Made by a program: the position numbers and the translations under genes. This document shows, piece by piece, positions 12,304-52,322 of a stretch of 64,000 nt of DNA; the first letter of the stretch is position 1; each line of letters opens with the position of its first letter. The DNA comes from Candidatus Kuenenbacteria bacterium (GTDB taxonomy: Bacteria; Patescibacteriota; Patescibacteriia; UBA2196; GWA2-42-15), in contig JAAZOM010000021.1 in the NCBI GenBank assembly GCA_012797775.1, positions 6,147 through 70,146 on the forward strand, given 5' to 3'. Below the pieces are notes generated by a model. That model ran no database searches and had not been told where the DNA came from. It was given only the letters and a program-made list of their open reading frames with translations.

Positions 12304-12376
12304 ACTCGCATAGCTCAATCGGCAGAGCGTGGGGCTCATAATCCCAGGGTTCTTGGTTCGAGTCCAAGGGCGAGTT
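12304..12376 (+). tRNA. tRNA-Met (anticodon CAT; initiator vs elongator vs Ile2 not resolved)
   Basis: Cloverleaf by eye: D-arm GCTC/GAGC, anticodon stem TGGGG/TCCCA with loop CTCATAA, T-arm CTTGG-TTCGAGT-CCAAG. No CCA is encoded. Confidence 0.8.
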
Positions 12377-12388
12377 CAAAGGAGGACT

Positions 12389-12469
12389 GCCACTATAGCT
12401 CAATGGTAGAGCGCTGTGCCTGTACACATGGCTCGGAGGTTTCCGGTTCAAGTCCGGGTAGTGGCACCA
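12389..12469 (+). tRNA. tRNA-like gene with canonical acceptor, D and T arms and an encoded CCA, but a non-canonical anticodon arm; identity unassigned
   Basis: Acceptor GCCACTA/TAGTGGC + A + CCA. D-arm TAGCTCAATGGTAGAGC. T-arm TCCGG-TTCAAGT-CCGGG. Between them are 23 nt instead of 17: a 7-bp stem with one U-U mismatch and a 9-nt loop TGTACACAT. Confidence 0.55.
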
Positions 12470-12475
12470 AATTAA

Positions 12476-12517
12476 AAAGCCCAATCTCTAAAATTAAATT
12501 AGATTGGGCTTTTTCTT
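12476..12517. terminator. Bidirectional rho-independent terminator between the tRNA pair (+) and ligA (-)
   Basis: AAGCCCAATCT-loop-AGATTGGGCTT flanked by T/A runs. Confidence 0.6.
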
Positions 12518-12528
12518 TTTGTCTAAAG

Positions 12529-14550
<2,022 letters not shown>

Positions 14551-23313: not shown

Positions 23314-24429
23314 TTAATTATTAATTTTTTTATTTTTAATAAACTGGGCAGCCAACAATGTCGCTAAAGGCACGGCCAGAACTAAACCGATACTGCCGGT
23401 GATGGTTCTGACGATTTCCGTGGCGATCATCTCATTGTCCAACACCTGATTAAAGGTCAAAAAAGGCGGTTGTTTGACACTGAATAAAATAAGCAGGGGT
23501 AAGGAAGCGCCGGCATAAGCTAGAAATAAGGTATTGACCATGGAGCTCAAATGCGAAATGCCTACCCGCATAGCCTGTCTGTAAACTTGACTATTCGTTA
23601 ATTGGGGATTGGATGTTTTTAGTTCTTTGACTAACATTACTTGGGAAATAATCACGTCATCCAAAACACCCAAAGCGCCGATAATAATACCGGCCAAGAG
23701 CAGGCCTTTGATATTAATATTGCCTCCGGCGAGATCCATCAAAAAGACCGCTTCTTCACTGGCAAAGCCGGTCAGTTTGGCAATGGCCGAAAACCAAAAG
23801 GATAATAAGCCGGTAATAACTAGGGAAATTAGAATAGCAAAAATGGCAATGGTTGATGTTTTTTTAACGCCCTCGGTAATATAAACAGCGAGGATTAAAA
23901 TAAAAAATGAGCCGGCGATGCTGATCAAGAGCGGATCACTGCCGGCCAAAATTTTGGGAATAATGAATTTAAGAATAATCAAAAACGTCAGGCACAAAAC
24001 AACTAAAGCCCTTAGGCCCTTTAGCCTGCCGACAATTATCACTATTAAAGCGAATAAAAGCGCCAGCCAATAAATAGAGCTAGTCCGCGAATACCCAATC
24101 ACATAAAAAGTCTCCTCCCCAACCGGACCCAAACTGCGATTGACCAAAACCCGATCGCCAACTTGATATTCGCTGGCAGAAAGCATATCAAGTTCTGTAC
24201 CGTCAAAAATCAGGTCTTTATTTTCCCAAATTCCCTCAAGTCCTTGGAGCTTTAGTTTCTGTTGAATGGAGTTTGAGCCGTCTTCACGTGTGGAGGTTTT
24301 TTGTTCCAGAACCTCAACGACTCTAGCCTTAAACATTTGTTCGTTGGCAACATCAAAATCTTGGCCGAATGAGGACATCGGTAATAAAAACAAAACCAAA
24401 GAAATAAATGTTAAAAACTTTATTTTCAT
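23314..24429 (-). CDS. YibE/F family membrane protein
   Basis: An N-terminal extracytoplasmic domain is followed by a polytopic region with LAGGNINIKGLLLAGIIIGALGVLDDV, typical of YibE/F. Confidence 0.65.
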   Translation of the reverse strand: MKIKFLTFISLVLFLLPMSSFGQDFDVANEQMFKARVVEVLEQKTSTREDGSNSIQQKLKLQGLEGIWENKDLIFDGTELDMLSASEYQVGDRVLVNRSLGPVGEETFYVIGYSRTSSIYWLALLFALIVIIVGRLKGLRALVVLCLTFLIILKFIIPKILAGSDPLLISIAGSFFILILAVYITEGVKKTSTIAIFAILISLVITGLLSFWFSAIAKLTGFASEEAVFLMDLAGGNINIKGLLLAGIIIGALGVLDDVIISQVMLVKELKTSNPQLTNSQVYRQAMRVGISHLSSMVNTLFLAYAGASLPLLILFSVKQPPFLTFNQVLDNEMIATEIVRTITGSIGLVLAVPLATLLAAQFIKNKKINN

Positions 24430-24432
24430 TTT

Positions 24433-24711
24433 TTACTTTTTAATAATACTGATTGCTTTGCCGTTGATCAGGGCATCAGCAATTTTTTTATAAGCGGAAT
24501 ACAAAATCCTTTGGTAGGTGCTTTGGGAGGTATTCATTTTTTCTGCCGCTTCTTTTTGCTCCAAATCATTAATATGCCGCAGACGGTAAGCCTCCAGCTC
24601 TTCGGCTGATAATTCCACTAATTCTAATTGGCTTAGGGGCACGCCCTGGGGTTTGAAATAATTTATCCGGGGACTAAATCTTATTCTCCGGCACAGTCTG
24701 GGTCTTGGCAT
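24433..24711 (-). CDS. DUF134 (UPF0251) putative DNA-binding protein
   Basis: RFSPRINYFKPQGVPLS...LELSAEELEAYRLRHINDLEQKEAAEKMNTSQSTYQRIL matches the UPF0251 pattern (sigma-70 region-4-like HTH). Confidence 0.65.
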   Translation of the reverse strand: MPRPRLCRRIRFSPRINYFKPQGVPLSQLELVELSAEELEAYRLRHINDLEQKEAAEKMNTSQSTYQRILYSAYKKIADALINGKAISIIKK

Positions 24712-25203: not shown

Positions 25204-25746
25204 TTAGGAAATTTCTAGTATAAACTGATCTTTAAAAACGCGCGTTGGATTGGCTCGCGTTTTTGACCCAGCTTCATTTTTAATCATCGTAGCTCCGCAC
25301 CGGCCGTCATATCTTTTATATATTTTTTTCATCATACCCTTTCTGGCAAAAACATCGTTGATACCCAAAAAATTAACCAATAAACCAGCGATCAGAAGTG
25401 AGACTAAGAGGCTGAGCACGATTGTTGAAAAATTTTTTTTGTAGGAAAAATCATATTTCTTGAGTAGGACTACGCCTAAGAGTACTCCAAAAACAGCCAA
25501 GACAAGCGCCCACCAAGGGAAACTAGCTATAATTTGATCATACTTATAGCCGCGCATATAGCCATTGGTCCTCAAAGAAAAAATAGCAAAGTTGACTAAA
25601 AAAATAGTTACTACCAAAATACTAACCAAACCAGCGGCTGAGGCCAGCGAGCCAAAAACAAAATACCACCTTGGCTTCATTTTTATTTCTCCGGATTTAA
25701 TCCTCTCCATTATTTTTTCTTTTAAATCTATTTCTTTGTTTGACAT
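25204..25746 (-). CDS. Membrane protein, putative anti-sigma factor partner of the ECF sigma factor
   Basis: Its start overlaps the sigma gene's end by 19 nt. It has two TM segments. There is no sequence-level family match, so the call rests on position only. Confidence 0.4.
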   Translation of the reverse strand: MSNKEIDLKEKIMERIKSGEIKMKPRWYFVFGSLASAAGLVSILVVTIFLVNFAIFSLRTNGYMRGYKYDQIIASFPWWALVLAVFGVLLGVVLLKKYDFSYKKNFSTIVLSLLVSLLIAGLLVNFLGINDVFARKGMMKKIYKRYDGRCGATMIKNEAGSKTRANPTRVFKDQFILEIS

Positions 25747-26273
25747 ATTTTTTTCATAAAAATTTTAGCTCGATTGATCCTGGTCCCAACTGTTCCCAAG
25801 GGGAGCCTCAAAATATCGGCTATTTCATTGTAGGATTTTTCCTCAAAGAAATATAAGGATAATGGTTCACTATATAAAATAGGTATTTCTTCTAGACAAC
25901 TTCTCACCTTTTTAATCATCTCCTGCCGATCAAAATCAAATTCCATATCATCTTCGCTCCCAATATCAAAGCCCTCCGGCATTTCAATCTGTTGCTTATT
26001 TTTTTTAATCTCATTGATCGCCTCATTGTGTATAATTCTATAAATCCAGGTCGAAAACTTCATCTCTGTTTTAAAACTCTTCAGGTTTATAAAAGCTTTA
26101 ATGAAAGAATTCTGGACAATATCAGCGGCCTTGTCACGGTCTTTGGATAAAGAATTGGCATATCGAAACAATTTTTCCTGATATCTCAAAACTATTTCGG
26201 AAAATAATTCCTGATTTTCTTTGATAATATATTCAACCAATTGTTCATCTGATAACTGCGCAAGGTTGTGCAT
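25728..26273 (-). CDS. ECF-type RNA polymerase sigma-70 family factor
   Basis: Region 2 is WIYRIIHNEAIN. Region 4 HTH is SYNEIADILRLPLGTVGTRINRA. Confidence 0.85.
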   Translation of the reverse strand: MHNLAQLSDEQLVEYIIKENQELFSEIVLRYQEKLFRYANSLSKDRDKAADIVQNSFIKAFINLKSFKTEMKFSTWIYRIIHNEAINEIKKNKQQIEMPEGFDIGSEDDMEFDFDRQEMIKKVRSCLEEIPILYSEPLSLYFFEEKSYNEIADILRLPLGTVGTRINRAKIFMKKICQTKK

Positions 26274-26353
26274 ATATAAATATTATCCTCTCCAAAAATA
26301 AAAAGCAACAAACGCCGGCTTGAGATTCCAAGCCGGGTTTGTTTTATTAATAA

Positions 26354-26752
26354 TTATCTTGAATAGCGCCCAGAACCCTGACCCTTGCCTTGGCCATAGC
26401 CAGACCCAGCTTTTTGTCCACCAGCCCTTAAGCCCAATTCTTGTCTTATTTTGTTGGCCTCCTCACGTTTTCCCTGCATAGCCAAATCGTGGGCTTCAGT
26501 AAATTTGGCAAAGTTTTCTTGGTTGACAACCTGGTTTACTCGCCCACCCTTGCCGGCCATCAATTCTTTCCAGGCGGAATAATCTCTGTTTTGAAAGGCA
26601 CTGGTCATCAAGACGTGTCTTTCTTCTGAATAATTTGGCCCTTTTTGAGTATAATCTCCCTGATAGGCCAAAACCTGACTCGCGCCCAGAGCCCCGAACA
26701 AGACCGCGAATCCGAGGAACGAAGGCATTAATATTTTTTTATTAATTTTCAT
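26354..26752 (-). CDS. Secreted hypothetical protein with Gly-rich C-terminus
   Basis: Signal peptide. Charged helical middle. C-terminal GSGYGQGKGQGSG. Confidence 0.5.
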   Translation of the reverse strand: MKINKKILMPSFLGFAVLFGALGASQVLAYQGDYTQKGPNYSEERHVLMTSAFQNRDYSAWKELMAGKGGRVNQVVNQENFAKFTEAHDLAMQGKREEANKIRQELGLRAGGQKAGSGYGQGKGQGSGRYSR

Positions 26753-26854
26753 ATATTTATATTATTTAGCTAATATATATTCTAATAATTAACGACCTTT
26801 CACTATTAATACAACTCAAAGGCGTCTTTTCTTTCATTTTTATATTTTATTCAT

Positions 26855-26900
26855 AAATTAAAAATCCACCAGCATAAAGTTGATGAGTTTTTTAATTCTC
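26855..26900. repeat. Direct repeat copy 1 (46 bp): AAATTAAAAATCCACCAGCATAAAGTTGATGAGTTTTTTAATTCTC
   Basis: Near-identical to 33876..33922; the only difference is one extra A in the A-run. Confidence 0.85.
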
Positions 26901-27077
26901 CCAACCTCGGTCTAGTACTACCAGATTGGGGTCTTTTGGGGGTTCTTTGGGCGACTTGTACTGTGGTAAACAACGGGAACGGGTCGAGGTCTTTATATTA
27001 AAATTTTAACACAAATGGGACAAATGGGACAGTATAAAAAAGAGTGTCTAATTTAATATAATTCAAACAATAAAAAA

Positions 27078-27658
27078 TCACTTCTTCTCGCTGGCTTTTA
27101 AAAACAGCGAGGCCGATATTATAAACAATGTGGCGAAAAATCCGCTAAGGACAAATACTCCGGGAACGCTGGGCGACCATGAGATAACGCTGGGGGGCCA
27201 AATAAAAAACGCAATCACAGGAACCAACATTTGAGCGAACGCTGTTATATACAACGCAATCGCCATTCCTTTCGGATTTAAGCGAGCGATAGAAACGCCG
27301 CTAACGCCAATTAACAAGACTCCGCCATACAACAGATTAGCTGGGTTGTCTTCATTTCCGATAATACCAACAGCCCCGTTTATCCAAATAAGAAGCAAAG
27401 CTGTCGCTATTGCCACGCCCACGCCTGCTTTATAGGAAATATATCGCTGGATCTTCTTGAAATCAATTCGTAAGCAATGCCCGAGCCAAATAAGAAAACA
27501 CCGACCATAATAAAATCGCCTAAGCTCCAATCCCAGCCACCGCCTTGACCTCCGTTAATAGTCGCGTTTGGGTTTATCAAAGTTAATACCAAAGGTATCA
27601 AAAGTATAAGTCCCGTTCCGATCGCAAAATAAATTATTCTTTTGTTTTTCTTCTCCAT
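27078..27658 (-). pseudogene. Membrane protein gene split by a frameshift (ORFs 27407..27658 and 27078..27530 overlap by 124 nt in different frames)
   Basis: The upstream 83-aa ORF and the downstream 150-aa ORF are both TM-helix rich. The first ~35 codons of the downstream ORF (MELRRFYYGRCFLIW...) look non-native, so one gene is probably disrupted near 27430-27470. Confidence 0.4.
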
Positions 27659-27858
27659 ATCTTTTTTCTAATTATCAATTTCCAAAAGCCGATTAAAGTT
27701 ATTAAAAGTCCGATCCCTTGAGCGCCGGGGCTGTCGTCATATCCGCCGAATATGATTATAGAAACGCCTAATATTAACACGGGCAAAAATAAAAGCATTC
27801 TTCGCCATTTATGATCTTTTTCCTCTTGGTCTGATTGTATTTTTATTTCGTTCTTCAT
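27634..27858 (-). CDS. Small membrane protein (74 aa)
   Basis: A single TM hairpin. It is tightly packed between neighbouring genes. Confidence 0.4.
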   Translation of the reverse strand: MKNEIKIQSDQEEKDHKWRRMLLFLPVLILGVSIIIFGGYDDSPGAQGIGLLITLIGFWKLIIRKKIWRRKTKE

Positions 27859-27862
27859 AAAT

Positions 27863-29224
27863 TTATTCAGTAGTCATTCTAATCTCACCACATTTATCTT
27901 TATACTCGTTTATAATATCAAAAATATCATCTATTACAGGTTCTTGGGCTGTTATTTCTCTACCATCTTTAAAAACAGCTGTTACTTCTAAAGCATGGGT
28001 TTGCATAATAGATGCTATTTCACAATTTGCAATAGCCTGTTTTATCAAATTCCAATTAGAAATATTAGTAAAAGCGTATTCTTCGGCTTTTGCAATTAAA
28101 TCTTCTACATCATGTTCTAATATTTTTTGCTGAACATCATCTGGAAATATTCTTTTAATATCTTTTGAATAATTAGACCCATCCCCTGGAGCTTCGTAAG
28201 AAAATTTATTCAAATCATAATATGATAATTCATTTGGATAATCTATTTTAGCCGGGCCAGACGAACCGCTTACTGTTTTTAATTCATTGTCTTCAATCAC
28301 ATATTCCCCACAATAAGCCCAAATGTATAATGGAAATAATTCTTGATCAGGTTTTAGGTTTTTAATCGTACAAAAACTATGACTGTCCTCCCTGTTTTTC
28401 CAGCTGAAATGTTTTTCAGTCAAAAGATAATTAGATATCGCTTTTTCAATTTTGTCATTGCTAAAATTATTTTCTATTAAATTTTTATCAATCTCATATC
28501 CGTAAGTCAGCCAAACTCTATCCTCTTCACCACCCAAACAACTTAAATGGATATCAGCTTGATGTTTGTCATTTTCCAGCCTAACTATAGTATTGCCCAT
28601 CGCCCCTCCCTGTATATCAGACGCAAACTCCAAAGTTAGTTCATTATTCTCGCCGTCTAATGACCGCAAAATTCCATACTTAAGATCATACTCAACTACC
28701 TTGAGCGGATCATGTCGCCAAGTCACCAAGCCTTCTTGATAAAGTGAGTGATAAACATTTAACAATTCACGACGTTCAGCCGGAGTTGATATTTTTTTTA
28801 CCAAATTATAGCTAGCCAGCTCTTCTATTTTAATTTGTGATATCTTATCGCCGAAATTATCAACCCTAATCGGAAAATAAATTAACAAAAATACTACAAG
28901 TATGGACAATATTACATTTTTAAATCCGATTCCCCCGGTTTTTTTATCATGCCGGTAATAGACCCATAAAAAAATTGATATTACCAAAAAGAAAAGCGTA
29001 AAATACAAAAGTGGGAAAAAGAAAAACCACGAATAATTATTTTCAAAATTTTCTAGAAAAATACTGCCAAAATTATTGTGAAATATGTTGCCAGACCGAC
29101 CGCCACCCATCCACAAATCAGGGATGGAAATAAAAGTTGAAAATAAAAGCAACGTTCCCCCAACCAGCGCTACACTAAAAAATCGGGACAAATATTCACT
29201 GATAATTACTAAAACATTTTTCAT
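27863..29224 (-). CDS. Hypothetical membrane-anchored protein (453 aa)
   Basis: N-terminal TM helices and a large extracytoplasmic domain. Low-GC codon usage. Confidence 0.5.
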   Translation of the reverse strand: MKNVLVIISEYLSRFFSVALVGGTLLLFSTFISIPDLWMGGGRSGNIFHNNFGSIFLENFENNYSWFFFFPLLYFTLFFLVISIFLWVYYRHDKKTGGIGFKNVILSILVVFLLIYFPIRVDNFGDKISQIKIEELASYNLVKKISTPAERRELLNVYHSLYQEGLVTWRHDPLKVVEYDLKYGILRSLDGENNELTLEFASDIQGGAMGNTIVRLENDKHQADIHLSCLGGEEDRVWLTYGYEIDKNLIENNFSNDKIEKAISNYLLTEKHFSWKNREDSHSFCTIKNLKPDQELFPLYIWAYCGEYVIEDNELKTVSGSSGPAKIDYPNELSYYDLNKFSYEAPGDGSNYSKDIKRIFPDDVQQKILEHDVEDLIAKAEEYAFTNISNWNLIKQAIANCEIASIMQTHALEVTAVFKDGREITAQEPVIDDIFDIINEYKDKCGEIRMTTE

Positions 29225-29247
29225 AAATATATTTTTAAAATTTATAA

Positions 29248-30678
29248 TTAATCATAATAATTCACGATGCCAGAATTTTTGCCTGACACAACTTCCATAT
29301 TGCCTGTAACATATACATTTAATCTGCTCGTATTTATCGCGTTAATTGTCGCTTGCTCCGTTGTAAATTTATCCATTTCAATCCAGCAATCACCTGAATT
29401 TATTATTAAATTTTTAGCTGAACCAGTCAGATTGATTATACCACCTTCAGCTTCTAATTTTAACGTATTAGCAACTTCTATATTACCTTTTATATTATTA
29501 AATCTATGAGTAAGTTTTATTTCCAAATTATTAATTTCCAAATCTTCTAATATAATATTAGCGGCTTCATTCTCTATTTTTTCAATATCGGGCATTGTTA
29601 TTTCTATTGTTAAACGCTTAGTGCCGGCTGCAAATGGTATTTTATCATTCTCCATCGTCCAAGTATTGGTATTATAATATGTCTCCAATTCCGATCTTTT
29701 GATATTTAAAGTATCGCCGACTTTGGCAAATTCTAATCCAATCTGGTCATACTCGCTGCCTATGACTTTAATATCAAAATATTCACCTTGCTTAATTATT
29801 ATGTCGTCAAACTTAACGTAGCGTGAAATATAAATACTATCAAAATCTTTAATATCAATACTGACTTCTTGCATTTTTTCTTTGAACTCAGTCTTTTTAT
29901 TTTGAAATTCAGTATTCAGGTGACAAGACTGCAAGATAAAAATTCCCAAACATAATATGAATAATAAAATTAATTTTAAAAATAATTTTAAATTAAAAAT
30001 ATTTTTCTTACTGGAAAACAGCATTAATCCCAATATTCCTACAAAAAACAATGGTATTGTAATAATGGCCAGCAAGGATAAAAGCGATAAATAATAGTTA
30101 AAAAATCCAACAACGTCTATTATCCTAAAATCAACCATTACGTGCTGAAGCCAAGAACATGAGGGATTAAAAAATAAAATCAAAAATATAATTACAGATG
30201 TCAATATTCCCAACGACCCCACGCCCAAAAATATTCCTCCAAATATTTTTCTCAAAGTTATGGTTATTTTTGAATTTGGATATTTCTTAAATTGCTCCGA
30301 TATGCCTCTGATAACCAAACCAATCAACCCGCCAGCCAGACTTAAAACAACAAAAGGGAAAAACATATCTAAAAACATATAGAAGTCAAAAGGTGGTTTG
30401 TACAAATACAAATGACGTGAATATTCAACAAAATAAGCGACCAAGACAATAGCTATATTGTTAACCAAAGTGCCAATAAAAAGAATCGGCAAAAATTCAT
30501 AACTTCTATTTTTATTTTGTAGCAATATAAACAAAATACCACTAACAAGTGGTATGAGTAGATATATAAGAATTACGGGGATGTAACCAAATACCATACC
30601 ATCCAAACTGCGTGGCGATAACATAATAAGCAAGTTGATAATTACAGTGCCAATAAAAATAAAGGATATTTTTTTCAT
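29248..30678 (-). CDS. Polytopic membrane protein with C-terminal beta-rich (DUF4097/adhesin-like) domain
   Basis: About 8 TM helices. The C-terminal repetitive region (NLEIKLTHRFNNIKGNIEVANTLKLEAEGGIINLTGSAKNLII) resembles DUF4097; the match is weak. Confidence 0.5.
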   Translation of the reverse strand: MKKISFIFIGTVIINLLIMLSPRSLDGMVFGYIPVILIYLLIPLVSGILFILLQNKNRSYEFLPILFIGTLVNNIAIVLVAYFVEYSRHLYLYKPPFDFYMFLDMFFPFVVLSLAGGLIGLVIRGISEQFKKYPNSKITITLRKIFGGIFLGVGSLGILTSVIIFLILFFNPSCSWLQHVMVDFRIIDVVGFFNYYLSLLSLLAIITIPLFFVGILGLMLFSSKKNIFNLKLFLKLILLFILCLGIFILQSCHLNTEFQNKKTEFKEKMQEVSIDIKDFDSIYISRYVKFDDIIIKQGEYFDIKVIGSEYDQIGLEFAKVGDTLNIKRSELETYYNTNTWTMENDKIPFAAGTKRLTIEITMPDIEKIENEAANIILEDLEINNLEIKLTHRFNNIKGNIEVANTLKLEAEGGIINLTGSAKNLIINSGDCWIEMDKFTTEQATINAINTSRLNVYVTGNMEVVSGKNSGIVNYYD

Positions 30679-30690
30679 AATATATTTAAA

Positions 30691-31572
30691 TTACCAATAA
30701 ATCACATTTTCATTATCTGACCAAAAAACATTTTCATATCTGTTTTTAGATAGCCTGTTGTTTTGTTTAATAATTTCGCCTTTTTCTGGGTCAAAAATAA
30801 ATAAAGTCCAATATTCGTTTACTGTATCATAATCAACTGATTTAATCTTTGCTTCAATCGCTATCCGACTACTATCAGGAGAAAAAACCACATGGTTAAA
30901 ATCAAGCAATTTCATTTCTTTAAAATGAGTAATAAAATACCCATCATTTATAAAAGATAAATTAATCAGTCTTAAGCTTAAGTTCTGATTGTTGCAACTG
31001 TGATCTATTTCCATAACAGGTGGATTTTTATCACACTCACTTTCTAGAAAAACAACCTTTCTACCATCTTGCGATTTAGCAACTAATTTACCTTTAGTCG
31101 GTAATTCTACAGTTTTTCTGGTTTTAAAATTTAAATAATAATTAGTAAATGGACCATTATATAATTTACTATCTTGAGGCCATTGCCAAGCCGAACCAAT
31201 TAAAGTGTCTTTTGTTAAAGGTGTAAGTATTGGATCTATATAATTAGTATAAAAACCCAAGGAATATTTAATCTCTCCATTTTTCGTGATTCTAGTCCGA
31301 CCAACACCAAAATCAGCATCTTCTCCTATATGATTAAAAGAAAACATACCTTCATATTTATCAATATTGAAAATAGACGGCTCATTTAAACTTAAAATTT
31401 GTCCTGATAAATTGTTGATTTCATTATCAATATCATCAAGCTTATTTTGAGTATGACAATTGAAATACGGGGGTTGTGTCAAACAAGCATCACCGCGTTT
31501 AAACCAATAAATAAAAATAGCAACTATTGCTAATATTATTAGCGCTAAAACAATACAAATTTTTCTTTTCAT
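30691..31572 (-). CDS. Hypothetical membrane-anchored protein (293 aa), possibly beta-propeller-like
   Basis: N-terminal TM helix. Motifs such as VVFSPDSSRIAIEA. Confidence 0.5.
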   Translation of the reverse strand: MKRKICIVLALIILAIVAIFIYWFKRGDACLTQPPYFNCHTQNKLDDIDNEINNLSGQILSLNEPSIFNIDKYEGMFSFNHIGEDADFGVGRTRITKNGEIKYSLGFYTNYIDPILTPLTKDTLIGSAWQWPQDSKLYNGPFTNYYLNFKTRKTVELPTKGKLVAKSQDGRKVVFLESECDKNPPVMEIDHSCNNQNLSLRLINLSFINDGYFITHFKEMKLLDFNHVVFSPDSSRIAIEAKIKSVDYDTVNEYWTLFIFDPEKGEIIKQNNRLSKNRYENVFWSDNENVIYW

Positions 31573-31694
31573 GTTGTTTATTATACCTTATTTAAGAAAA
31601 AAAAACACCTGTTAAAACAGGTGTTTTTAAAATTCATTGGCCCAGAAGGGATTACTTTCGGCTTTGGATGGTTAATAATGATTAATAGTTTTGC

Positions 31695-33197
31695 CTATTG
31701 AACCTGTCTTAAGCTACTACCATCCCATTCAATCACTGGTTCATCACCATATTTCGCCTTTATTTCTACTGAATGATTTTGCCAAGTTCCATATTCAATG
31801 GTCTTGTTTTTTGGCCCCTCAAAAGGAGCTATGGCAAAATAAACCGTTATTCTATAACTATCGGCTAGCATTTCCGCTGATTGACTATTCTTTTTTAGAT
31901 CAGATGGACGGAAACCATGTTTGAAGCTTTCTCCCTGACCATAGACTTTCCCCATTGTATAGATGCCGCCGACATCTCTATCCTCGGCCGGATTAGCCGC
32001 CAGATCATCCCAACAAGTTGGATTAAAACAAACATCCATCATATAAGATTCTCCGCTGACATTCACAATTTTAAAAATCTGATTAGAATTAATATCAGAA
32101 TTAGTTTTTGGAGTTTCCGTGCTAACTTCTTCTTTTAGAACTTCTGTTGGCTTTACTTCTTGCTTGATTTCTTCTTTAATTTCTTCTTCAATTTGTTTCA
32201 TTATTTCCTCAACTTTTTCTCCGCTTTTAACGATATTATTTTCTTTCATCCACTCAGGCACTTCCTCCTCAGTCAACCCAGCCACACTAGCTTTAGTTTC
32301 ACCCTTTTCATCAGTTTTAATGCTAATTCCCAATATTTTTTCGTCTTGAATGGCTGATCTGATTTGATCGGCAGCAAAATAGCCAGCACTAACTTTTTCC
32401 ATCGCCTTTGACATATTTCCCGGCAAATTGGCAATTGTCAAAATACTAGCTGCTGGTTCAGTCACTGCTCTCGCCTTATTTACCATTTCCGATACCTTAT
32501 TTTTATCTCCCAGAGCTATTCTGGCTTCATCATCCGCCACCTCCAAAACCAAATCCGCACCGCCTACCACTGTCGCTGTCGTTGCCAAAACCCCAGTAGC
32601 ACCTCCGGTCAGCACTACCCCTCCCACAAACACCGTCACCTTGGCTCCGTTTTTAATTCTCATTGAATTTTGTTCGCAAGTTTCAAAGACATCTCCTTCC
32701 TCCCCATAAGCCTCTCGGGTAATTTGATCTTGAGTTTGGTTCAAAATTAAGTGAGCCATTTTGACATCAACTCCCAGGTGTTTAGCCAGGGTTCTTACAG
32801 TTTTACCAGCTGGAGCACTTTCAATTACTTTTTGAATTTCAACTGAAGTATAAGCAGAAGCACCTTTTACTAAATTAAATGCTGTTTTTTTATTAGCCAT
32901 TTTGTCAGCTTCTTTTTCTAACTCCGCTACTTCGCCTTCCAGCGCTTTCCACCCATCAATAACAGCACTCATTTCAGTATTCCATTTATCATAATCTCCG
33001 TACTCTTTGGCTTTTTCTAAAACATTTTCAGTCCGATATCTAAGTAGAGTATATTCTTTTGAAACGGATAGGGTTTTTCTATAAACCGTCTGGTCTAAAG
33101 TTGGAGTTTTGTCTCCTTTTTTTAAGGCCAAAAAACCGACGACCATGACTATTATTACAGTAACAATTGCGATTGGCAAGATTTTTTTTATCGACAT
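31695..33197 (-). CDS. Hypothetical membrane-anchored protein (500 aa) with acidic EEIK repeat linker
   Basis: N-terminal TM helix, a Gly/Thr/Ala-rich segment and EEIKEEIKQEVKPTEV repeats. Confidence 0.5.
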   Translation of the reverse strand: MSIKKILPIAIVTVIIVMVVGFLALKKGDKTPTLDQTVYRKTLSVSKEYTLLRYRTENVLEKAKEYGDYDKWNTEMSAVIDGWKALEGEVAELEKEADKMANKKTAFNLVKGASAYTSVEIQKVIESAPAGKTVRTLAKHLGVDVKMAHLILNQTQDQITREAYGEEGDVFETCEQNSMRIKNGAKVTVFVGGVVLTGGATGVLATTATVVGGADLVLEVADDEARIALGDKNKVSEMVNKARAVTEPAASILTIANLPGNMSKAMEKVSAGYFAADQIRSAIQDEKILGISIKTDEKGETKASVAGLTEEEVPEWMKENNIVKSGEKVEEIMKQIEEEIKEEIKQEVKPTEVLKEEVSTETPKTNSDINSNQIFKIVNVSGESYMMDVCFNPTCWDDLAANPAEDRDVGGIYTMGKVYGQGESFKHGFRPSDLKKNSQSAEMLADSYRITVYFAIAPFEGPKNKTIEYGTWQNHSVEIKAKYGDEPVIEWDGSSLRQVQ

Positions 33198-33281
33198 AGG
33201 CTATTTTATTAAAAATTAATAAGACATATTTATCCCTATAAAAATAGAAAAGTTCTGACAAAAATAAATATTAATATTTAT

Positions 33282-33779
33282 TTAATCGACAATATAGTTT
33301 CTTTCAGCTTTGAAAGTTTCGATTAGGTTTTCTTGAAAATCTTTGATTAACACCGTTACCTCGACTCTAAGTTTACCCACTTTTTCAATAAATGTAGAAG
33401 TAAAAGCACATGTATTATCTCCACCAGCACTCAACACTGTCCGAACTGTCTGTTCTTTATAAAGCACTTCTTCATTGTTTTCGTTAAGGTAAAATCTCCA
33501 TTCACAAAAACCAAATTTTCCGTATTCATCCTCAAAATTATCAATCTTAGCCGACCACATTCGAGCTTGTCTGGCTTGGAACATTTCTTCCTTTGGGCTA
33601 ATGATTATTACCTTAATTGGTTTTTTCTCTTTTTCTTCAACAGGGGCAATTTCGGCACTTTTCTCGCTAATGTTTATTTCTTGTTTTGTCGTTTGTTTTG
33701 GTTGTTTTAATTTAATAAACACTGTTCCCGAAATTATTAAAATTAACAAGACAAGGATTATCCATCTATTATTTTTCAT
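33282..33779 (-). CDS. Hypothetical membrane-anchored protein (165 aa)
   Basis: N-terminal TM helix. It is the first gene of the minus-strand block that ends at 27078. Confidence 0.5.
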   Translation of the reverse strand: MKNNRWIILVLLILIISGTVFIKLKQPKQTTKQEINISEKSAEIAPVEEKEKKPIKVIIISPKEEMFQARQARMWSAKIDNFEDEYGKFGFCEWRFYLNENNEEVLYKEQTVRTVLSAGGDNTCAFTSTFIEKVGKLRVEVTVLIKDFQENLIETFKAERNYIVD

Positions 33780-33875
33780 TTTTTCATAATTTAATTATAA
33801 ATTTGGCTATTTTTTAATTGTTTTCCTAGCCCAATACATGTTTGCCCAGCGCCAATATTATTATGAGTTTACTTA

Positions 33876-33922
33876 AAAATTAAAAAATCCACCAGCATAA
33901 AGTTGATGAGTTTTTTAATTCT
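33876..33922. repeat. Direct repeat copy 2 (47 bp), overlapping the last 3 nt of tRNA-Asn
   Basis: Same sequence as 26855..26900 with one extra A. It ends with the CTC that is complementary to the tRNA 3' end. Confidence 0.85.
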
Positions 33923-33992
33923 CGGGGACAGGGATTCGAACCCTGGACCCATTGGTTAACAGCCAATTGCTCTACCGCTGAGCTATCCCCGA
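33920..33992 (-). tRNA. tRNA-Asn (anticodon GTT)
   Basis: Cloverleaf: acceptor TCGGGGA/TCCCCGA, D-arm GCTC-AGCGGTA-GAGC, anticodon stem ATTGG/CCAAT with loop CTGTTAA, T-arm CAGGG-TTCGAAT-CCCTG. No CCA is encoded. Confidence 0.9.
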
Positions 33993-34237
33993 ATAAAACC
34001 TTTTATAAATTGTCTGCCTCGATAACTTTTTAATTCTTTCTCCCTTTTTAATGCCTCTTCCCTGCTCGCAACATGCTCTAAGCAGATAGCAACCCATTCA
34101 CCATCAAACCTAGCGGTATATCCCTTGGAAAAAATTTTATTGTTATGCAAAGCTAAACGTTCTTCTAAATTTTTAGTCTGCCCTATATAAATTTTATTAT
34201 GTTTTTTATTATAAACACAATAAACTATAAATTCCAT
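33983..34237 (-). CDS. Small GIY-YIG nuclease family protein (YhbQ/Slx1-like URI domain)
   Basis: IVYCVYNKKHNKIYIGQTKNLEERLALHN carries the GIY...YIG...R...E...N motifs. The last 3 codons and the stop overlap the tRNA-Asn acceptor stem. Confidence 0.8.
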   Translation of the reverse strand: MEFIVYCVYNKKHNKIYIGQTKNLEERLALHNNKIFSKGYTARFDGEWVAICLEHVASREEALKREKELKSYRGRQFIKGFIRG

Positions 34238-42329: not shown

Positions 42330-43199
42330 TTAATAAAGAGTAAGGGAAAGATATTTTGTCAGAATCCACTGCCCACAAAGAAGGGTGATAAGGGCGCTCG
42401 GAGTCAAAAAGGTGCCGAAGGGAATAGCTGATTGCATGCTCTTTTTTTTACTAATTATGAGAAAAATACCGACTGCGGCTCCGGAAATATAAGCGAGGAA
42501 AAGACAAACCAAAGTGTGCGGCCAGCCCAAGAGAAACCCGATTAAAAAACCCAGACGAATATCTCCCCCACCAATCCACTTGCCTTTGGATAAAATAAAT
42601 TGGGCCAAGAAAAAACCACCACCGACCAGTCCGCCCAAAAAATAACCAGAAAAAAATGACCAAAAGCCCTGGGCAGTGGGGGCTGAAAAATAAATTAATA
42701 AATTAAATATTAAGGCAAGAAAAATGGCCGGCAAGGTGACAACATCAGGAATCAAATAATACCTTAGATCATAAATAAAAATAAAAAGAAAAACGGCTGC
42801 AAAAAAACAATAGCCAACAAAATATAAAATAGCAATAGAACCAAGAACAAAAGAAAAATAAATTTTTAAAGAAATAAGCACAAAAATAAGGCCGCAAGCG
42901 AACTCCACTAGGGGATATTGGAGGGAAATTGTCTGCCGGCAATGACGACAATGACCGCGAAGTAACAGGTAACTAATAATGGGCAAATTGTCGTACCAGA
43001 TAATCTGTTTTCTGCATTTTGGACAATGAGAGCGCTCAGTGACAAAAGGTTGCTTCGTATGCAGGCGATAAACCAAGCAATTAATAAAACTCCCTATGAT
43101 CAAACCAAATAAAAAAGAAAAAATAATAAACAAATAAAACATGATATTATTATAACACAAAACCCTTCTTGTGTTGAGAAGAAGGGTTTTGGGTGACAA
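42330..43199 (-). CDS. pilD: Prepilin peptidase (A24 family)
   Basis: N-terminal Zn-binding CxxC pairs (CPKCRKQI...CRHCRQ) and a polytopic DUF/peptidase A24 core. The true start may be the internal MFYLFIIF. Confidence 0.85.
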   Translation of the reverse strand: MSPKTLLLNTRRVLCYNNIMFYLFIIFSFLFGLIIGSFINCLVYRLHTKQPFVTERSHCPKCRKQIIWYDNLPIISYLLLRGHCRHCRQTISLQYPLVEFACGLIFVLISLKIYFSFVLGSIAILYFVGYCFFAAVFLFIFIYDLRYYLIPDVVTLPAIFLALIFNLLIYFSAPTAQGFWSFFSGYFLGGLVGGGFFLAQFILSKGKWIGGGDIRLGFLIGFLLGWPHTLVCLFLAYISGAAVGIFLIISKKKSMQSAIPFGTFLTPSALITLLCGQWILTKYLSLTLY

Positions 43200-43203
43200 G
43201 TAA

Positions 43204-43668
43204 TTACCTTATATAGTTGGGAACACCAGAGTGGACGCCCGAAGACAAACCGCCAGAGGGACTTTCTAAAGTAAAGGTAATAGTATAGGTAGAGCCATCA
43301 CTTGAATAAACATAATCAGACCCACCCGGAGAGGGGTTCGCTTGAATTTTTGCCATATAAGTACTACCGGAAACCGAGGAATTAAAACCGTTGGCAGAAC
43401 TAAGGCTAGTCCTGGGATCTACACCCAGTGCTCCATCTTGTACCACGCCACCAATGGTGCCAGAAGGATAACCGCCCAAGTCATTGAAATAAAGCTCAAG
43501 GGCGGTTTGGATATTGCGAACATCCCCCAACCTGCGGCTATCGCGTGATTTTATCCTGGCGTTGTTTAATGAAGTTACGGCCAAGGTAGCCAAAAGCCCA
43601 ATAATCGCTATGACCAGTAAAAGCTCAATTAAAGTAAACCCGGGTTGACTTTTTTGTTTGTAAAACAT
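43204..43668 (-). CDS. pilA: Type IV major pilin (paralog 1) with S/T/G-rich C-terminal half
   Basis: PGFTLIELLLVIAIIGLLATLAVTSLNNARIKSRDSRR is a classic T4a pilin N-terminus. The C-terminus is Ser/Gly-rich. Confidence 0.8.
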   Translation of the reverse strand: MFYKQKSQPGFTLIELLLVIAIIGLLATLAVTSLNNARIKSRDSRRLGDVRNIQTALELYFNDLGGYPSGTIGGVVQDGALGVDPRTSLSSANGFNSSVSGSTYMAKIQANPSPGGSDYVYSSDGSTYTITFTLESPSGGLSSGVHSGVPNYIR

Positions 43669-43747
43669 ATTTTAAAAATAGTTTCTATTGTATTATTATT
43701 TATTATAGCTTAAAATTATAATAATTAACAACAAAGAACGGTGGATA

Positions 43748-45385
43748 ATGGCAAAAGATAAATACTATAAAAATCTTAAATCTTTTCTTGTTTCGCACAA
43801 ATATCCTTTTTTATTGACTCTAATTATAATATTGGGGCTATTTTTGAGGTTGGTGAATATCGAGAAAGAACCATATTGGTGCGATGAACTTTTAAGTTTG
43901 GGAGTGGCAAAACACTATATTAACAATCTGGCAGAAATGTGGGATTATTTACGATTGGTAGATATACACCCACCGCTCTATTATTATTTGCTTAGTTTTT
44001 GGATAAAAATATTCGGCCACGGAGAAGCCGCCACAAGGGCAATGTCCCTTGTCTTTAGTTTGGGTGTTGTATGGTTAACTTATATAGCCGGAGTAGTTTT
44101 TTTAAAAAACAAAAAAATAGCTATCGTTGCCTCGTTTTTGGCGGCTATTTTGCCAATGCAGATAGAGTATGGCCAAGAGGCTAGACCTTATGCTATTTAT
44201 TGTTTCTTTGGTTTGGCCAGTATTATCCTGCTGGCCAAATATTTTGAAGCTGAAAAAAAGAATAAAAAAATTTTATTATCTTTCTTCTACGCAGCGACAA
44301 GCATAATTGGCCTTTATCTTCACTACTCGTTTCTGCTAATAATAATACCAACGGCCAGCTGGTGGTTGATAAAAGTAATAAAAGAAAAAAAGAGTAAGGA
44401 TTTTCTATGGTGGCTGGGGACTATGACAATAATTTTTCTAGGTTTTTACCCGTGGCTATCAGTATTTATTTTTAAAAGCTTTTTGTCCAATAATGTGATA
44501 ACTAATAGCCAGATACTGATGACCACGGCTAGGCCTTTTGATTTTATGGAAACCGCAATGAGCCAACTAATATGGACGAACAAAATGCCCCTATCCTCTC
44601 CAGTGGAGGTGTTTGCTGCTTTTGTTGTAAAAATTTTTGTATTAATACTTGTACTAATAATTATAACCAACGGAAAAGACCACTTTAAAAAAAATCGGTC
44701 GGCAATAAATTTTATAGGGTGGGTAATAGTCATAAGCAGCCTGCTTTTTCTTTTTATGCCCAGCTCCAATGCTTATACAACGCTCCTGGAAAGACACCTG
44801 ATAGTTGACTCTGTTCTCTTGGCTTTATTGCTGTCTTTTTTGATAGTCTTTGGGTTGCGAAAAAGCCGGTGGATATTGATAGCTTTGGGTTTGATAGTTG
44901 TAAGCTTATTCACTCTAAATATAAAAATATTGAGCGATGATTCACTTTTTGATATCAACAGCCGCTTTGGAATAGTGGCCAATTATATAAATGAGCAATA
45001 CAAGGATGGCGACCTGCTTTTGATCAATGATAGTATAGTTAGATCGGATATGAATTATTATTTGAGAAACGATATTCAGGGCTTTAAGACTATTTATCCA
45101 ACGATTATTGGCGAGAATGATCTTTTGGCAACAAGAGACACCTTGGGTTTTGTGGAAAGCGCTTTTCATTTATTAAAAGAAACTGGTATGGTGGAAAGTC
45201 GCTTAAATATAAAAATGAATTATCTGATAAAAAAATATAACCCAAAAAGGGTCTGGGTTGTTTGTGCTTCTGATGATGTCAAAGACTGGTTTCGGACGGA
45301 CGATTGGCGCATGGCATTTAAACCAATCGGCAAACTCTTCCCGGTAAGTTTATACGTCAAAATAGAACCAACAAAAAATAAATAA
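43748..45385 (+). CDS. GT-C fold membrane glycosyltransferase (PMT_2 / ArnT / GT39-GT83-like), 545 aa
   Basis: It has 11+ TM helices. An acidic motif sits in the first extracytoplasmic loop (EPYWCDELLSLG). The architecture is family-typical (RPYAIYCFFG...) and there is a C-terminal soluble domain. Confidence 0.75.
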   Translation: MAKDKYYKNLKSFLVSHKYPFLLTLIIILGLFLRLVNIEKEPYWCDELLSLGVAKHYINNLAEMWDYLRLVDIHPPLYYYLLSFWIKIFGHGEAATRAMSLVFSLGVVWLTYIAGVVFLKNKKIAIVASFLAAILPMQIEYGQEARPYAIYCFFGLASIILLAKYFEAEKKNKKILLSFFYAATSIIGLYLHYSFLLIIIPTASWWLIKVIKEKKSKDFLWWLGTMTIIFLGFYPWLSVFIFKSFLSNNVITNSQILMTTARPFDFMETAMSQLIWTNKMPLSSPVEVFAAFVVKIFVLILVLIIITNGKDHFKKNRSAINFIGWVIVISSLLFLFMPSSNAYTTLLERHLIVDSVLLALLLSFLIVFGLRKSRWILIALGLIVVSLFTLNIKILSDDSLFDINSRFGIVANYINEQYKDGDLLLINDSIVRSDMNYYLRNDIQGFKTIYPTIIGENDLLATRDTLGFVESAFHLLKETGMVESRLNIKMNYLIKKYNPKRVWVVCASDDVKDWFRTDDWRMAFKPIGKLFPVSLYVKIEPTKNK

Positions 45386-45389
45386 TATT

Positions 45390-46139
45390 ATGCCAAAAAT
45401 ACACCCGGGCAAAAGAGTAATAGCCGTTTTGCCAGCTTATAATGCCGAGAAAACCCTAAAAAAAACACTCGACGATATACCAAAAGATTGGGTAGATGAA
45501 ATAATATTGGTAGATGACGCCAGCGGAGACAAAACAGTTGAATTGGCCAGATTTTTGGGGATAAAAACATTCACTCATAATAAAAATTTGGGTTACGGAG
45601 GAAACCAAAAAACTTGTTATACAGAAGCCCTAAAACTGGGAGCCGATATCGCCATAATGATACACCCGGACCACCAATATGATCCGCGCTTGGTGCCAGA
45701 TTTACTTTTGCCACTTTTAAGAGAGGACGCAGATGCTGTTTTTGGATCAAGGATGATGAGACCGGGTGGAGCCAGAAATGGAGGCATGCCCAGCTGGAAA
45801 TACTGGGCCAATATTTTTTTAACTAAGTTGGAAAACCTGATACTTGGCCTTAGGTTGACCGAATATCATTCCGGTTTTCGCGCTTATTCAAAAAAAGCTC
45901 TAGAACAAATAAATTTTTTGGACAATTCGGATGATTTTGTTTTTGATACAGAGATAATTATACAACTTCGAATAAAAAAAATGCATATCCAAGAAGTGCC
46001 AATTAGTACTCGTTATTTTAAAGAAGCTTCGATGATAGGATTCAAGAGAAGCCTGATCTACGGCCTGAGTATTATAAAAAATTTGGGAGAATATATTTTA
46101 TTTAGGTTGGGCTGGAAAAAATACAAAAAATTTGGATAG
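45390..46139 (+). CDS. GT2 polyprenol-phosphate glycosyltransferase (DPM1 / GtrB / ArnC-like)
   Basis: AVLPAYNAEKTL...EIILVDDASGD...GYGGNQKTCY is the GT2 signature of dolichol/undecaprenol-phosphate sugar synthases. Confidence 0.85.
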   Translation: MPKIHPGKRVIAVLPAYNAEKTLKKTLDDIPKDWVDEIILVDDASGDKTVELARFLGIKTFTHNKNLGYGGNQKTCYTEALKLGADIAIMIHPDHQYDPRLVPDLLLPLLREDADAVFGSRMMRPGGARNGGMPSWKYWANIFLTKLENLILGLRLTEYHSGFRAYSKKALEQINFLDNSDDFVFDTEIIIQLRIKKMHIQEVPISTRYFKEASMIGFKRSLIYGLSIIKNLGEYILFRLGWKKYKKFG

Positions 46140-46163
46140 TTAATACAAATTACAGATGTTAAA

Positions 46164-46571
46164 ATGATATTTAAAAAGATAATTAACTATTTTCTCCAAA
46201 AAAAATTTATCCGCTTCGCTATTTCCGGAGGCATAGCCACGGTAGTGGATATCTCCCTGCTATATATACTAACAGAATGGTTGGGCATCTGGTATTTAAT
46301 ATCCTCCGTCTTTTCTTTTCTGGTGGGCTCAATTACTCATTTCTCAATTAGCCGCGCGTGGGTATTTGATGATAGGGGCAAAAAATACTGGCAACAATAT
46401 AAATCTTTTTTTGTTATACACTTGGTCGGGCTGGCGATAAATACGGCCGCACTTTATATTCTCGTAGAATATTTTGATGTTTATTATATAGCCGCCAAAA
46501 TTATTACGGTTATTTTTGGTGTAAGTTGGACATTTTGGGCTAACAAAAAATTAACTTTTGAAAAAACCTAA
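46164..46571 (+). CDS. GtrA-family small membrane protein (lipid-linked sugar flippase-like)
   Basis: 135 aa with 4 TM helices. FIRFAISGGIATVVDISLLYIL is GtrA-like. Confidence 0.8.
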   Translation: MIFKKIINYFLQKKFIRFAISGGIATVVDISLLYILTEWLGIWYLISSVFSFLVGSITHFSISRAWVFDDRGKKYWQQYKSFFVIHLVGLAINTAALYILVEYFDVYYIAAKIITVIFGVSWTFWANKKLTFEKT

Positions 46572-46602
46572 AAGAATAGTAACGAAAAATAAAATTTTAC
46601 AA

Positions 46603-46640
46603 CAAAAACGCCCCTCATGCGTAAGGGGCGTTTTATAAAA
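46603..46640. terminator. Bidirectional terminator between the GtrA-like gene (+) and the pilin gene (-)
   Basis: AACGCCCCT-CATGCGTA-AGGGGCGTT hairpin with flanking A/T runs. Confidence 0.6.
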
Positions 46641-46648
46641 ACCGAAAT

Positions 46649-47122
46649 TTACTGAATACCGTTGGGGGTGGCGGTTCTCGCGCCTGAGGCTAGACCACCA
46701 GTAGCTCCCTCAAGACTGAAAGTAATCATATAGCTTTGGGTGCTAGCAGCACAAGTGGTGGGCGCAGCTGAAGTGGCACTACAATAAGTGTAATCAGCAC
46801 CATTTGGTGTCGGATTGCTCGGGACTTGACCCATATAAACTGTGCCAGAGGTAGAACCAGTAGCAGTAAATCCACCGGCGCTAAGAGCTGCATAATTACT
46901 AGAACCAAGTGTCTGGCCTGTGCCAACGCTTGGATAGCCATTTTGATCAACAAAATATAATTCTAAAGCAGTCTGGATTTGTTTGATATCAGAAACACGT
47001 TTGGCGTCTCTGGATTTTTGACGAGCATTGTTTAGAGCCACGACAGAAAGAGTAGCTAGAAGACCAATAATGGCGATAACAACCAAGAGCTCAATCAAAG
47101 TAAAACCTTTTCTATTTTTCAT
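46649..47122 (-). CDS. pilA: Type IV major pilin (paralog 2) with S/T/A-rich C-terminal half
   Basis: RKGFTLIELLVVIAIIGLLATLSVVALNNARQKSRDAKR. The C-terminus is GSTSGTVYMGQVPSNPTPNGADYTYCSATSAAPTTCAASTQ. Confidence 0.8.
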   Translation of the reverse strand: MKNRKGFTLIELLVVIAIIGLLATLSVVALNNARQKSRDAKRVSDIKQIQTALELYFVDQNGYPSVGTGQTLGSSNYAALSAGGFTATGSTSGTVYMGQVPSNPTPNGADYTYCSATSAAPTTCAASTQSYMITFSLEGATGGLASGARTATPNGIQ

Positions 47123-47293
47123 AAATTTTTAACAAATTACTTATTTAATAAACCTAGCTAGATTTATTACAAAAAAAGATTTCGACCTTTGCTTTTGTAT
47201 TTTGTAACTAAATGCAAATAATTATTTATCCACAGTTTAATTATAACATCAAAACAAAAAAAGGACAAATATTTTGCTGAAATAAGCTATTTA

Positions 47294-48499: not shown

Positions 48500-48502
48500 A
48501 TA

Positions 48503-49591: not shown

Positions 49592-49621
49592 ATTGGTTGG
49601 GACATTAGAATTATTTAAAGA

Positions 49622-51352: not shown

Positions 51353-51361
51353 AAAATAAAA

Positions 51362-51682: not shown

Positions 51683-51686
51683 AAAA

Positions 51687-52310: not shown

Positions 52311-52322
52311 ATCTTATTTTTA

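Follow-up and report, generated by a model that had tools for sequence, protein, structure and literature searches.

Introduction

Flexible genomic islands whose contents are swapped by way of conserved flanking sequence are familiar from pangenome work, where they include the 'replacement' islands for surface structures and the O-antigen and capsule loci. Islands and prophages associated with tRNA genes depend on P4-type or other tyrosine integrases, and their attL and attR sites derive from the 3' segment of the tRNA gene. Rho-independent terminators of the bidirectional type consist of a stem-loop placed between an A-tract and a U-tract. Here we describe a locus which shares features with each of these systems and which was found in 64,000 nucleotides of DNA from a Candidatus Kuenenbacteria bacterium of the Patescibacteria, or candidate phyla radiation (CPR; assembly GCA_012797775.1, contig JAAZOM010000021.1, positions 6,147 to 70,146 of the forward strand), this whole stretch being called the window, or W in comparisons. 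A direct repeat of 46/47 nt, AAATTAAAAA(A)TCCACCAGCATAAAGTTGATGAGTTTTTTAATTCTC, occurs in the window at 26855-26900 (copy hp1) and at 33876-33922 (copy hp2, which touches a tRNA-Asn gene), and the DNA between the copies encodes membrane-anchored proteins. The original prediction, made from the letters of the window, took this arrangement for an island integrated site-specifically with the repeats as its att sites. We favour, with moderate confidence, a different explanation, namely that a conserved terminator-like hairpin stands at two fixed sites framing a flexible envelope-gene locus which is exchanged by homologous recombination and is not an island inserted by an integrase.

Sequences compared

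The exact 23-mer core of the repeat was scanned in 185,579 species-representative genomes and in a metagenome collection. It was present in two of the species-representative genomes, the metagenome-assembled genomes (MAGs) AMR_MDS_2613 (MAG2613), with two copies spaced 7023 nt apart as in the window, and AMR_MDS_2609 (lineage B), with one. The metagenome scan returned the same contigs together with one Joint Genome Institute (JGI) contig of the 2609 lineage. Further loci were obtained through context look-ups and comprised L005 (a 303-kb contig), lineages C, D and F, and strain E, which was found by means of the exact 165-aa protein encoded next to hp2 and was assembled independently from five sequencing runs. 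All of the compared sequences are metagenome-derived.

A direct repeat with terminator-like architecture

The two copies of the repeat are identical save for one A in a homopolymer run, as had been proposed, and within the window the 23-nt core has exactly two matches at three or fewer mismatches, compared with none in 100 shuffles. The minus strand carries the tRNA-Asn gene (anticodon GTT) at 33920-33993 (ARAGORN; Rfam, 72.9 bits), and therefore hp2 takes in the last three bases of the tRNA (GAG on the minus strand), which confirms the predicted overlap. Only these three nucleotides of the repeat are tRNA; the other 43-44 nt form a trailer hairpin. The predicted spacing was also found, each copy being followed after about 100 nt by a minus-strand start, with 103 nt from hp1 to the start at 26752 and 97 nt from hp2 to the start at 33779.

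Read on the minus strand, which is the transcribed one, the repeat unit is GAGAAUUAAAAAACUCAUCAACUUUAUGCUGGUGGAUUUUUUAAUU and comprises an A-tract, a 6-bp stem that includes G.U pairs, a loop and a U-tract. The 47-nt hp2, directly 3' of tRNA-Asn, folds as RNA with -14.1 kcal/mol (z about -3.1 to -3.8 against shuffles), and the 46-nt hp1 folds with -10.2 kcal/mol, better than shuffles on the minus strand. The hairpin is strand-specific because its G.U pairs turn into mismatches on the opposite strand. Whereas hp2 follows the tRNA, hp1 follows the last gene of a cassette and a 177-nt spacer (X, 26901-27077), and stands at the 3' end of that cassette and at the 5' edge of a module of three genes for a 132-aa protein, a sigma factor of the extracytoplasmic function (ECF) type and a protein in anti-sigma position. 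A further element, a terminator-like perfect palindrome (T, 31601-31628, minus strand), lies after a 500-aa gene and forms the right edge of the slot that holds the cassette; it has 12 pairs and a T-run, folds with -15.5 kcal/mol (z -4.9) and is conserved in W, strain E, lineage B and L005. As the repeat shares its design of A-tract, stem and U-tract with T, it looks like the intrinsic-terminator type of this genome, and it would most likely be a factor-independent terminator, or an insulator, acting on minus-strand transcripts. It resembles Rho-independent terminators in architecture and in location, one copy standing behind a tRNA gene and one behind the final gene of an operon, with a promoter region next in line; it departs from them in its weak, G.U-rich stem, in its unusually complete conservation and in the near-identity of its copies.

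The Logan contigs L001, L006, L007, L010, L039 and L045 stop at or inside the hairpin, either at its tRNA-side edge (33922) or 10-12 nt inside it (33912, 26889). Such breaks are to be expected where a 46-nt repeat exceeds the k-mer of the assembler, and they explain the fragmentation of this locus in short-read assemblies.

Conservation and copy number of the hairpin

In five lineage groups (W, MAG2613, L005, E and B) hp2 follows tRNA-Asn and is 100% identical, while the adjacent DNA is 81-87% identical. Between B and W there were no differences in 44 positions of hp2, compared with 13 in 96 of the adjoining spacer (p = 0.006), and between E and W hp1 differed at 2 of 47 positions, compared with 58 of 256 in the flank (p = 0.0013), the hp1 of strain E carrying one loop substitution relative to W. 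One stem pair reads CG in W, UG in E and UA in lineage C, with the inner stem retained. In lineage C this pair belongs to a compensated hairpin-like variant, with 7 changes in 35 positions that preserve the stem, which precedes the same sigma module at an unrelated locus. Since the conservation of either copy is well in excess of that around it, we regard them as functional elements and not as passive att scars.

No further sequence within 10 mismatches in 35 positions of the hairpin was found in 425 kb of related loci. A dispersed repeat of the repetitive extragenic palindrome (REP) or miniature inverted-repeat transposable element (MITE) kind, or a regulatory motif spread through the genome, was ruled out by copy number (two in the window, two in MAG 2613 and one in MAG 2609). 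The original prediction had offered as its own alternative a repeated promoter or untranslated-region element, and this lies closer to the evidence than the island does, although the many genome-wide copies that go with it were not seen in the two whole MAGs scanned.

A shared tract and its end-points

A near-identical tract at 26468-33951 is common to W, MAG2613 and L005. Across it the three sequences are about 99-100% identical, with approximately 36 scattered single-nucleotide differences and two divergent patches of about 200 bp, while in rpoD they are mutually only about 74-76% identical and in the genes to the left about 70-73% (about 70-76% over the rpoD, dnaG and YibE flanks taken together). 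Given such near-identity in so divergent a background, the segment has clearly moved horizontally. On the left the tract extends some 400 bp beyond hp1, reaching into the 132-aa gene. The next 1.2 kb, which holds the ECF sigma gene and the gene in anti-sigma position, is 85-95% identical and still above background. Its right-hand limit lies inside the tRNA, where three substitutions (33952, 33966 and 33977) that set W apart from MAG2613 and L005 all fall in the 5' two-thirds.

Strain E and MAG2613 are conspecific strains which have undergone a swap in this region. Their identity is 100% to the left of about 26500, 75-90% at 26500-26900 and again about 100% from about 32010 rightwards past the tRNA. 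This places the crossovers at about 26500, in the 132-aa gene, and at about 32010, within the 500-aa gene at its 3' end. Because the two are just 75-90% identical over the stretch from about 26500 to 26900, the difference in their cassettes is an allelic replacement and not an event at the hairpin. No gain, loss or transfer that we observed ends at the repeats, the limits being 26468-33951 for the tract, 26901-31590 for an insertion/deletion (described below) and about 26500 and 32010 for the swap.

The divergent patches within the tract lie at 28800-29000 in the 453-aa gene, where the patch is private to MAG2613, and at 31780-32010 in the 500-aa gene, where it is common to L005 and E. Identity falls to about 80% in each, and they resemble short stretches of gene conversion or recombination. 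Elsewhere in the window, at 42330-54563, is a type IV pilus set encoding prepilin peptidase, T2SSF, T2SSE, PilN and PilM; such genes would be compatible with DNA uptake.

Arrangement of the locus in related genomes

The order of elements in strain E is tRNA-Asn, hp2, the 165-aa gene, the 500-aa gene, T, 108 nt, hp1, a 134-aa gene and the sigma gene. Strain E thus keeps both hairpins and is without 26901-31590, having the 108 nt instead. This segment, which lies inside the repeats, is the only presence/absence polymorphism found. In the window it is the cassette itself (minus strand), made up of the 293-, 476-, 453- and 74-aa genes, the 83/150-aa (frameshifted) gene and the spacer X. In lineage B tRNA-Asn is followed by the hairpin, a 165-aa and a 496-aa gene, T, a 51-aa and a 241-aa gene, the module of 134-aa, sigma and 163-aa genes, a pair formed by a 489-aa DUF2807 gene and a 247-aa gene, and then a DUF3160 gene. 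Lineage B therefore has a single intact hairpin, beside the tRNA, and a 1.4-kb cassette of the 51- and 241-aa genes in the slot, and its orthologues of the 476- and 453-aa genes stand beyond the other side of the sigma module. The cassette slot, measured from T to hp1, is 4.7 kb in W, 1.4 kb in B and 0.1 kb in E. In all three the contents lie between tRNA-Asn with the adjoining 165-500 block and the sigma module, so that one position holds differing genes.

The 165-500 block (31695-33779, minus strand) consists of two genes for N-terminally anchored proteins and adjoins tRNA-Asn in W, MAG2613, L005, E and B. The components of the locus also occur apart from each other. In lineage C a module of 134-aa, sigma and 164-aa genes is present at the unrelated locus mentioned above, in lineage D the 165-500 block follows a NUDIX gene, and in lineage F the DUF2807-453 pair lies among polysaccharide genes. 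The 165-aa family is widespread in Patescibacteria, and the possibility that the 165-aa gene is a core gene syntenic with tRNA-Asn in distant relatives was ruled out, its contexts there being varied. A cassette array of the integron type was likewise rejected, since no integrase was found in the searched ORFs of the island and the window and the blocks are multi-gene units with their own terminators of differing sequence.

Like the flexible islands exchanged by homologous recombination, this locus has a fixed site between conserved flanks (the sigma module at one end, tRNA-Asn and rpoD at the other) and genes that vary between strains, an envelope or surface cargo of atypical composition, crossovers in flanking genes and near-identical alleles in divergent backgrounds. 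It differs from them in its CPR/Patescibacteria host, in a cargo of uncharacterised anchored proteins and a Toastrack protein in place of glycosyltransferases, and in being framed by two copies of a hairpin.

Other differences were observed in the neighbourhood. In L005 genes for an AhpC-type peroxiredoxin and a ParA-like protein (12352-13848 of that contig) lie between the DUF134 and YibE_F genes; the window is without them at 24429-24433, and this is another insertion/deletion. On the other side of the locus, at 33983-34237 (minus strand), the window has an open reading frame (ORF) for an 84-aa stand-alone GIY-YIG nuclease, the last 11 nt of which overlap the 5' end of tRNA-Asn. This ORF is specific to the lineage of the window, its position being taken by an FKBP gene in L005 and by just a short spacer in MAG2613, B and E. 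Directly beside a 165-aa homologue, L033 has a different small GIY-YIG gene and a gene of the rve family. The GIY-YIG ORF may be a selfish nuclease which marks recombination-prone spots.

Genes and composition between the repeat copies

All ORFs between the copies are on the minus strand and encode proteins of 165, 500, 293, 476, 453 and 74 aa, followed by overlapping ORFs of 83 and 150 aa which read like one frameshifted gene. The original description of co-directional genes for membrane proteins proved accurate, every ORF having at least one hydrophobic segment, either N-terminal or as one of several. The sole Pfam match above the curated cut-off among the island ORFs was DUF2807 in the 476-aa protein, which has multiple transmembrane (TM) segments followed by this C-terminal domain (Toastrack). 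The frameshift between the 83- and 150-aa ORFs (27400-27440, minus strand) is identical in all three lineages that carry the tract, with no indels among them, and so was inherited with the tract and is not a local sequencing error.

In the 453-aa protein (27863-29224, minus strand), residues 1-210 form an N-terminal membrane domain that is 50-80% identical across many groups of Patescibacteria. Anchors of this type are fused to differing C-terminal domains (PF10988/DUF2807, PF03009, PF03073, PF20122, PF09864 and PF07603, many others being without a Pfam match), a pattern that suggests a constant anchor to which interchangeable heads are joined.

The deviant composition that had been predicted was found, the G+C content between the repeats being 33.6%, lower than in any other 7-kb stretch of the window, compared with 41.4% for the rest; the predicted figure of 27-30% holds for 29-31 kb alone. 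Five island genes have a third-position G+C fraction of 0.19-0.31, compared with 0.43-0.45 in rpoD and dnaG. Apart from the first kilobases of the window, no 7-kb stretch deviates more in composition than the locus. It is also heterogeneous, the 83/150-aa ORFs having a normal G+C content (41-45%) and the 500-aa gene one of 39%.

The spacer X (26901-27077, minus strand) is non-coding, and its 90 nt nearest the hairpin are G+C-rich. It gave no Rfam match, folded no better than shuffles (z -0.7) and showed no similarity to the equivalent DNA of B or C. The idea that hp1, like hp2, trails an RNA gene, with such a gene or a decayed tRNA at 26901-26990, was rejected, there being no Rfam match and both the fold and the local alignment to tRNA-Asn being at the level of shuffles. 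For lineages B and C the stretch that precedes the module likewise aligned to tRNA-Asn no better than shuffles.

The sigma-factor module

The module to the left of hp1 (25204-26752, minus strand) encodes a 132-aa secreted or anchored protein, an ECF-type sigma factor of 181 aa with Sigma70_r2 and Sigma70_r4_2 domains, and a 180-aa protein with three TM segments in the anti-sigma position. It recurs in B, C and E, and in both B and C homology to W stops at 26864/26865. The 132-aa protein has an identical counterpart in Candidatus Kuenenbacteria, encoded on a 72-kb contig. Upstream of the 132-aa gene (26753-26850, minus strand, with equivalents in L011, L025 and L038) two blocks, AAATGAAAGAAAA and TGTAT(T/A)AAT(A/G)GTGAAAGGTCG, hardly vary among W, B, C and E despite 10-25% divergence around them. 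These blocks are candidate promoter or operator sequences for the sigma module; an ECF-type promoter was sought by eye within them and none could be assigned.

Toastrack domains have been tied to membrane stress signalling and to sigma factors (PMC11237479). In agreement with the neighbourhoods of Toastrack domains (DUF2807, DUF4097 and DUF2154) with sigma factors or two-component systems described there, the 476-aa protein combines multiple TM segments with DUF2807, and its orthologue in lineage B is encoded directly after the pair of ECF sigma and anti-sigma-position genes. The locus differs from those neighbourhoods in that no PspA, PspC or LiaF partners were detected and in that hp1 separates the gene from the sigma module, and the functional link between them is a putative one. 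The cargo probably belongs with the ECF sigma module, and the genes between the repeats look like an envelope-sensing or surface set linked to the ECF sigma factor, for which a role in envelope stress might be expected.

Far from the locus, at 12389-12469 (plus strand), ARAGORN reported an 81-nt tRNA-Cys with anticodon ACA beside tRNA-Met (Rfam tRNA, 52 bits). By eye its anticodon stem is weak and the assignment doubtful, and the insert between anticodon arm and T-arm resembles a long variable arm.

Discussion

In the explanation that we favour, the hairpin has two fixed sites in this Kuenenbacteria clade, one immediately 3' of tRNA-Asn and the other immediately 5' of the promoter region of the module for the 132-aa protein, the ECF sigma factor and the putative anti-sigma factor. 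The DNA between the hairpins consists of independently shuffled blocks for membrane-anchored proteins, the 165-500 block with its own terminator being followed by a cassette slot that reaches to hp1. Homologous recombination would pass alleles of the locus from strain to strain and even across lineages with about 25% divergence, the crossovers lying in conserved neighbouring sequence (the 132-aa gene, the 500-aa gene and the tRNA), and DNA uptake followed by RecA-type recombination could provide the means. Several points weigh against this explanation. As a terminator the stem is weak (6 bp with two G.U pairs and few G-C pairs), and a simple consensus terminator scan does not list it. Its full conservation over about 47 positions, loop included, and the near-identity of copies 7 kb apart seem to exceed what an ordinary terminator needs, and point to an additional sequence-specific constraint or to gene conversion. 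The origin of the second copy is left unexplained, and the terminal GAG of the tRNA, which opens both hp1 alleles, would fit a duplication from the tRNA 3' end. Finally, every comparison rests on metagenome assemblies; however, independent assemblies agree, the 303-kb contig among them, which argues against chimeras.

That last concern can be put as a reading of its own, in which the tract or the second copy of the repeat is a chimeric join at shared k-mers. Besides the metagenomic source of all sequences, the breaks of the Logan contigs exactly at the hairpin edges would suit it. We consider it extremely unlikely, as the two-copy layout with its 7023-nt spacing was recovered in independent assemblies from different projects, the three versions of the tract carry their own single-nucleotide differences and private divergent patches, and strain E was assembled independently from its five runs. 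More has to be said of the integrated island. It retains what the original prediction had rightly seen, an accessory and compositionally deviant stretch which abuts tRNA-Asn and has moved horizontally; what fell away is the integrated element bounded by the repeats, since every comparative test that was run came out against att sites. The prediction had itself remarked on the lack of an integrase or excisionase, and this was upheld, since no recombinase Pfam domain was found in ten ORFs from the island and directly next to it, nor in 20 more from across the window. Searches of all island ORFs against Pfam, PHROGs and NCBIfam gave no recombinase, and none is listed among the precomputed Pfam domains for the 20-kb syntenic locus L005. 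An empty site, with tRNA, hairpin and 132-aa gene directly joined, was not found by the exact 23-mer in the 185,579 species genomes or the metagenome collection, where only occupied loci appeared, nor was this junction met in eleven context look-ups, absence from collections not being proof. Relatives with a single copy at tRNA-Asn and the segment gone, which the prediction had pointed to as a check, were thus not seen, strain E keeping both copies. No circular junction was present in the contexts of the exact 165-aa protein and of the 132-aa homologues. An origin from a phage, plasmid or virus was rejected as well, there being no DNA match in phage or plasmid collections and no PHROG match; in IMG/VR neither the hairpin nor the 293-aa protein had a relative.

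The island can be restated in an older form, in which hp1 and hp2 are attL and attR left by an ancient insertion into the tRNA-Asn trailer, whether integrase- or homology-mediated (Campbell-type), of an element that carried at least the 165-500 block, the integrase being lost later and the content reshuffled. Direct repeats around low-GC accessory DNA at a tRNA 3' end and horizontal transfer are what the integrative islands of tRNA genes display. The repeat unit opens with the last three nucleotides of the tRNA in both hp1 alleles (W and E), CCCCG precedes the hairpin-like copy of lineage C as it does at the tRNA 3' end, the repeats of strain E bracket just the 165-500 block, and lineage D shows that this block can move. 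The GAG and the CCCCG in particular leave such an ancient insertion of the 165-500 block some probability, and yet we judge it unlikely. The locus departs from integrative islands in that no integrase was found in the island, the window or the syntenic relatives and no empty site in the scans, in end-points that lie off the repeats, and in a repeat that is nearly all trailer, so small is the duplicated part of the tRNA. In lineage B the first two island genes are accompanied by just a single intact copy, both copies are constrained and not decaying, and neither X nor the DNA upstream of the C copy contains a relic of a tRNA. Conservation of the hairpin invites yet another reading, namely that it is a sequence-specific cis-regulatory element, such as a protein- or RNA-binding site or a leader or attenuator, which co-regulates the 165-500 and the 132-sigma-anti-sigma operons and owes its identity to selection on sequence. 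The similar distance of both copies from a start codon would agree with this, as would the conservation of all 44-47 positions, loop included, between lineages whose flanks are 13-25% different, and the tie to the sigma module persists at another locus in lineage C. The changes in that same lineage speak against it, because 7 in 35 that preserve the stem fit a constraint at the level of structure rather than of sequence. Moreover, the C copy lies about 60 nt farther from the module, the module of lineage B has no intact copy and a different, strong terminator in its place, and neither a candidate binding protein nor a matching RNA family was found, so that co-regulation appears quite improbable. 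Lastly, W and E differ exactly at the GAG boundary of hp1, and the hairpin might conceivably be a site, kept identical by selection or gene conversion, which a trans-encoded factor uses to target the insertion or exchange of cassettes at its 5' edge. We give this little credence; if true, it would amount to a cassette platform in CPR bacteria, independent of integrases or so far unrecognised, anchored to tRNA-Asn and the ECF sigma module.

If a terminator-like hairpin framing a locus exchanged by homologous recombination is the right explanation, as we favour, then the locus is a fresh example, in an under-studied phylum, of a kind of locus already known and reveals no new kind of mobile element. 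It illustrates how direct repeats, a tRNA gene and low G+C content, for all that they form a classical footprint, can mislead, the repeat here being a conserved functional hairpin and the island a mosaic shaped by recombination. It also offers a well-resolved case of recent gene flow in uncultivated CPR bacteria, in which a 7.5-kb tract for envelope proteins is near-unchanged in three Kuenenbacteria lineages about 25% apart in housekeeping genes, and a cassette swap within a species with crossovers that can be mapped. As such it bears on how surface and stress-sensing proteins come to vary in organisms that have small genomes and probably live attached to a surface.

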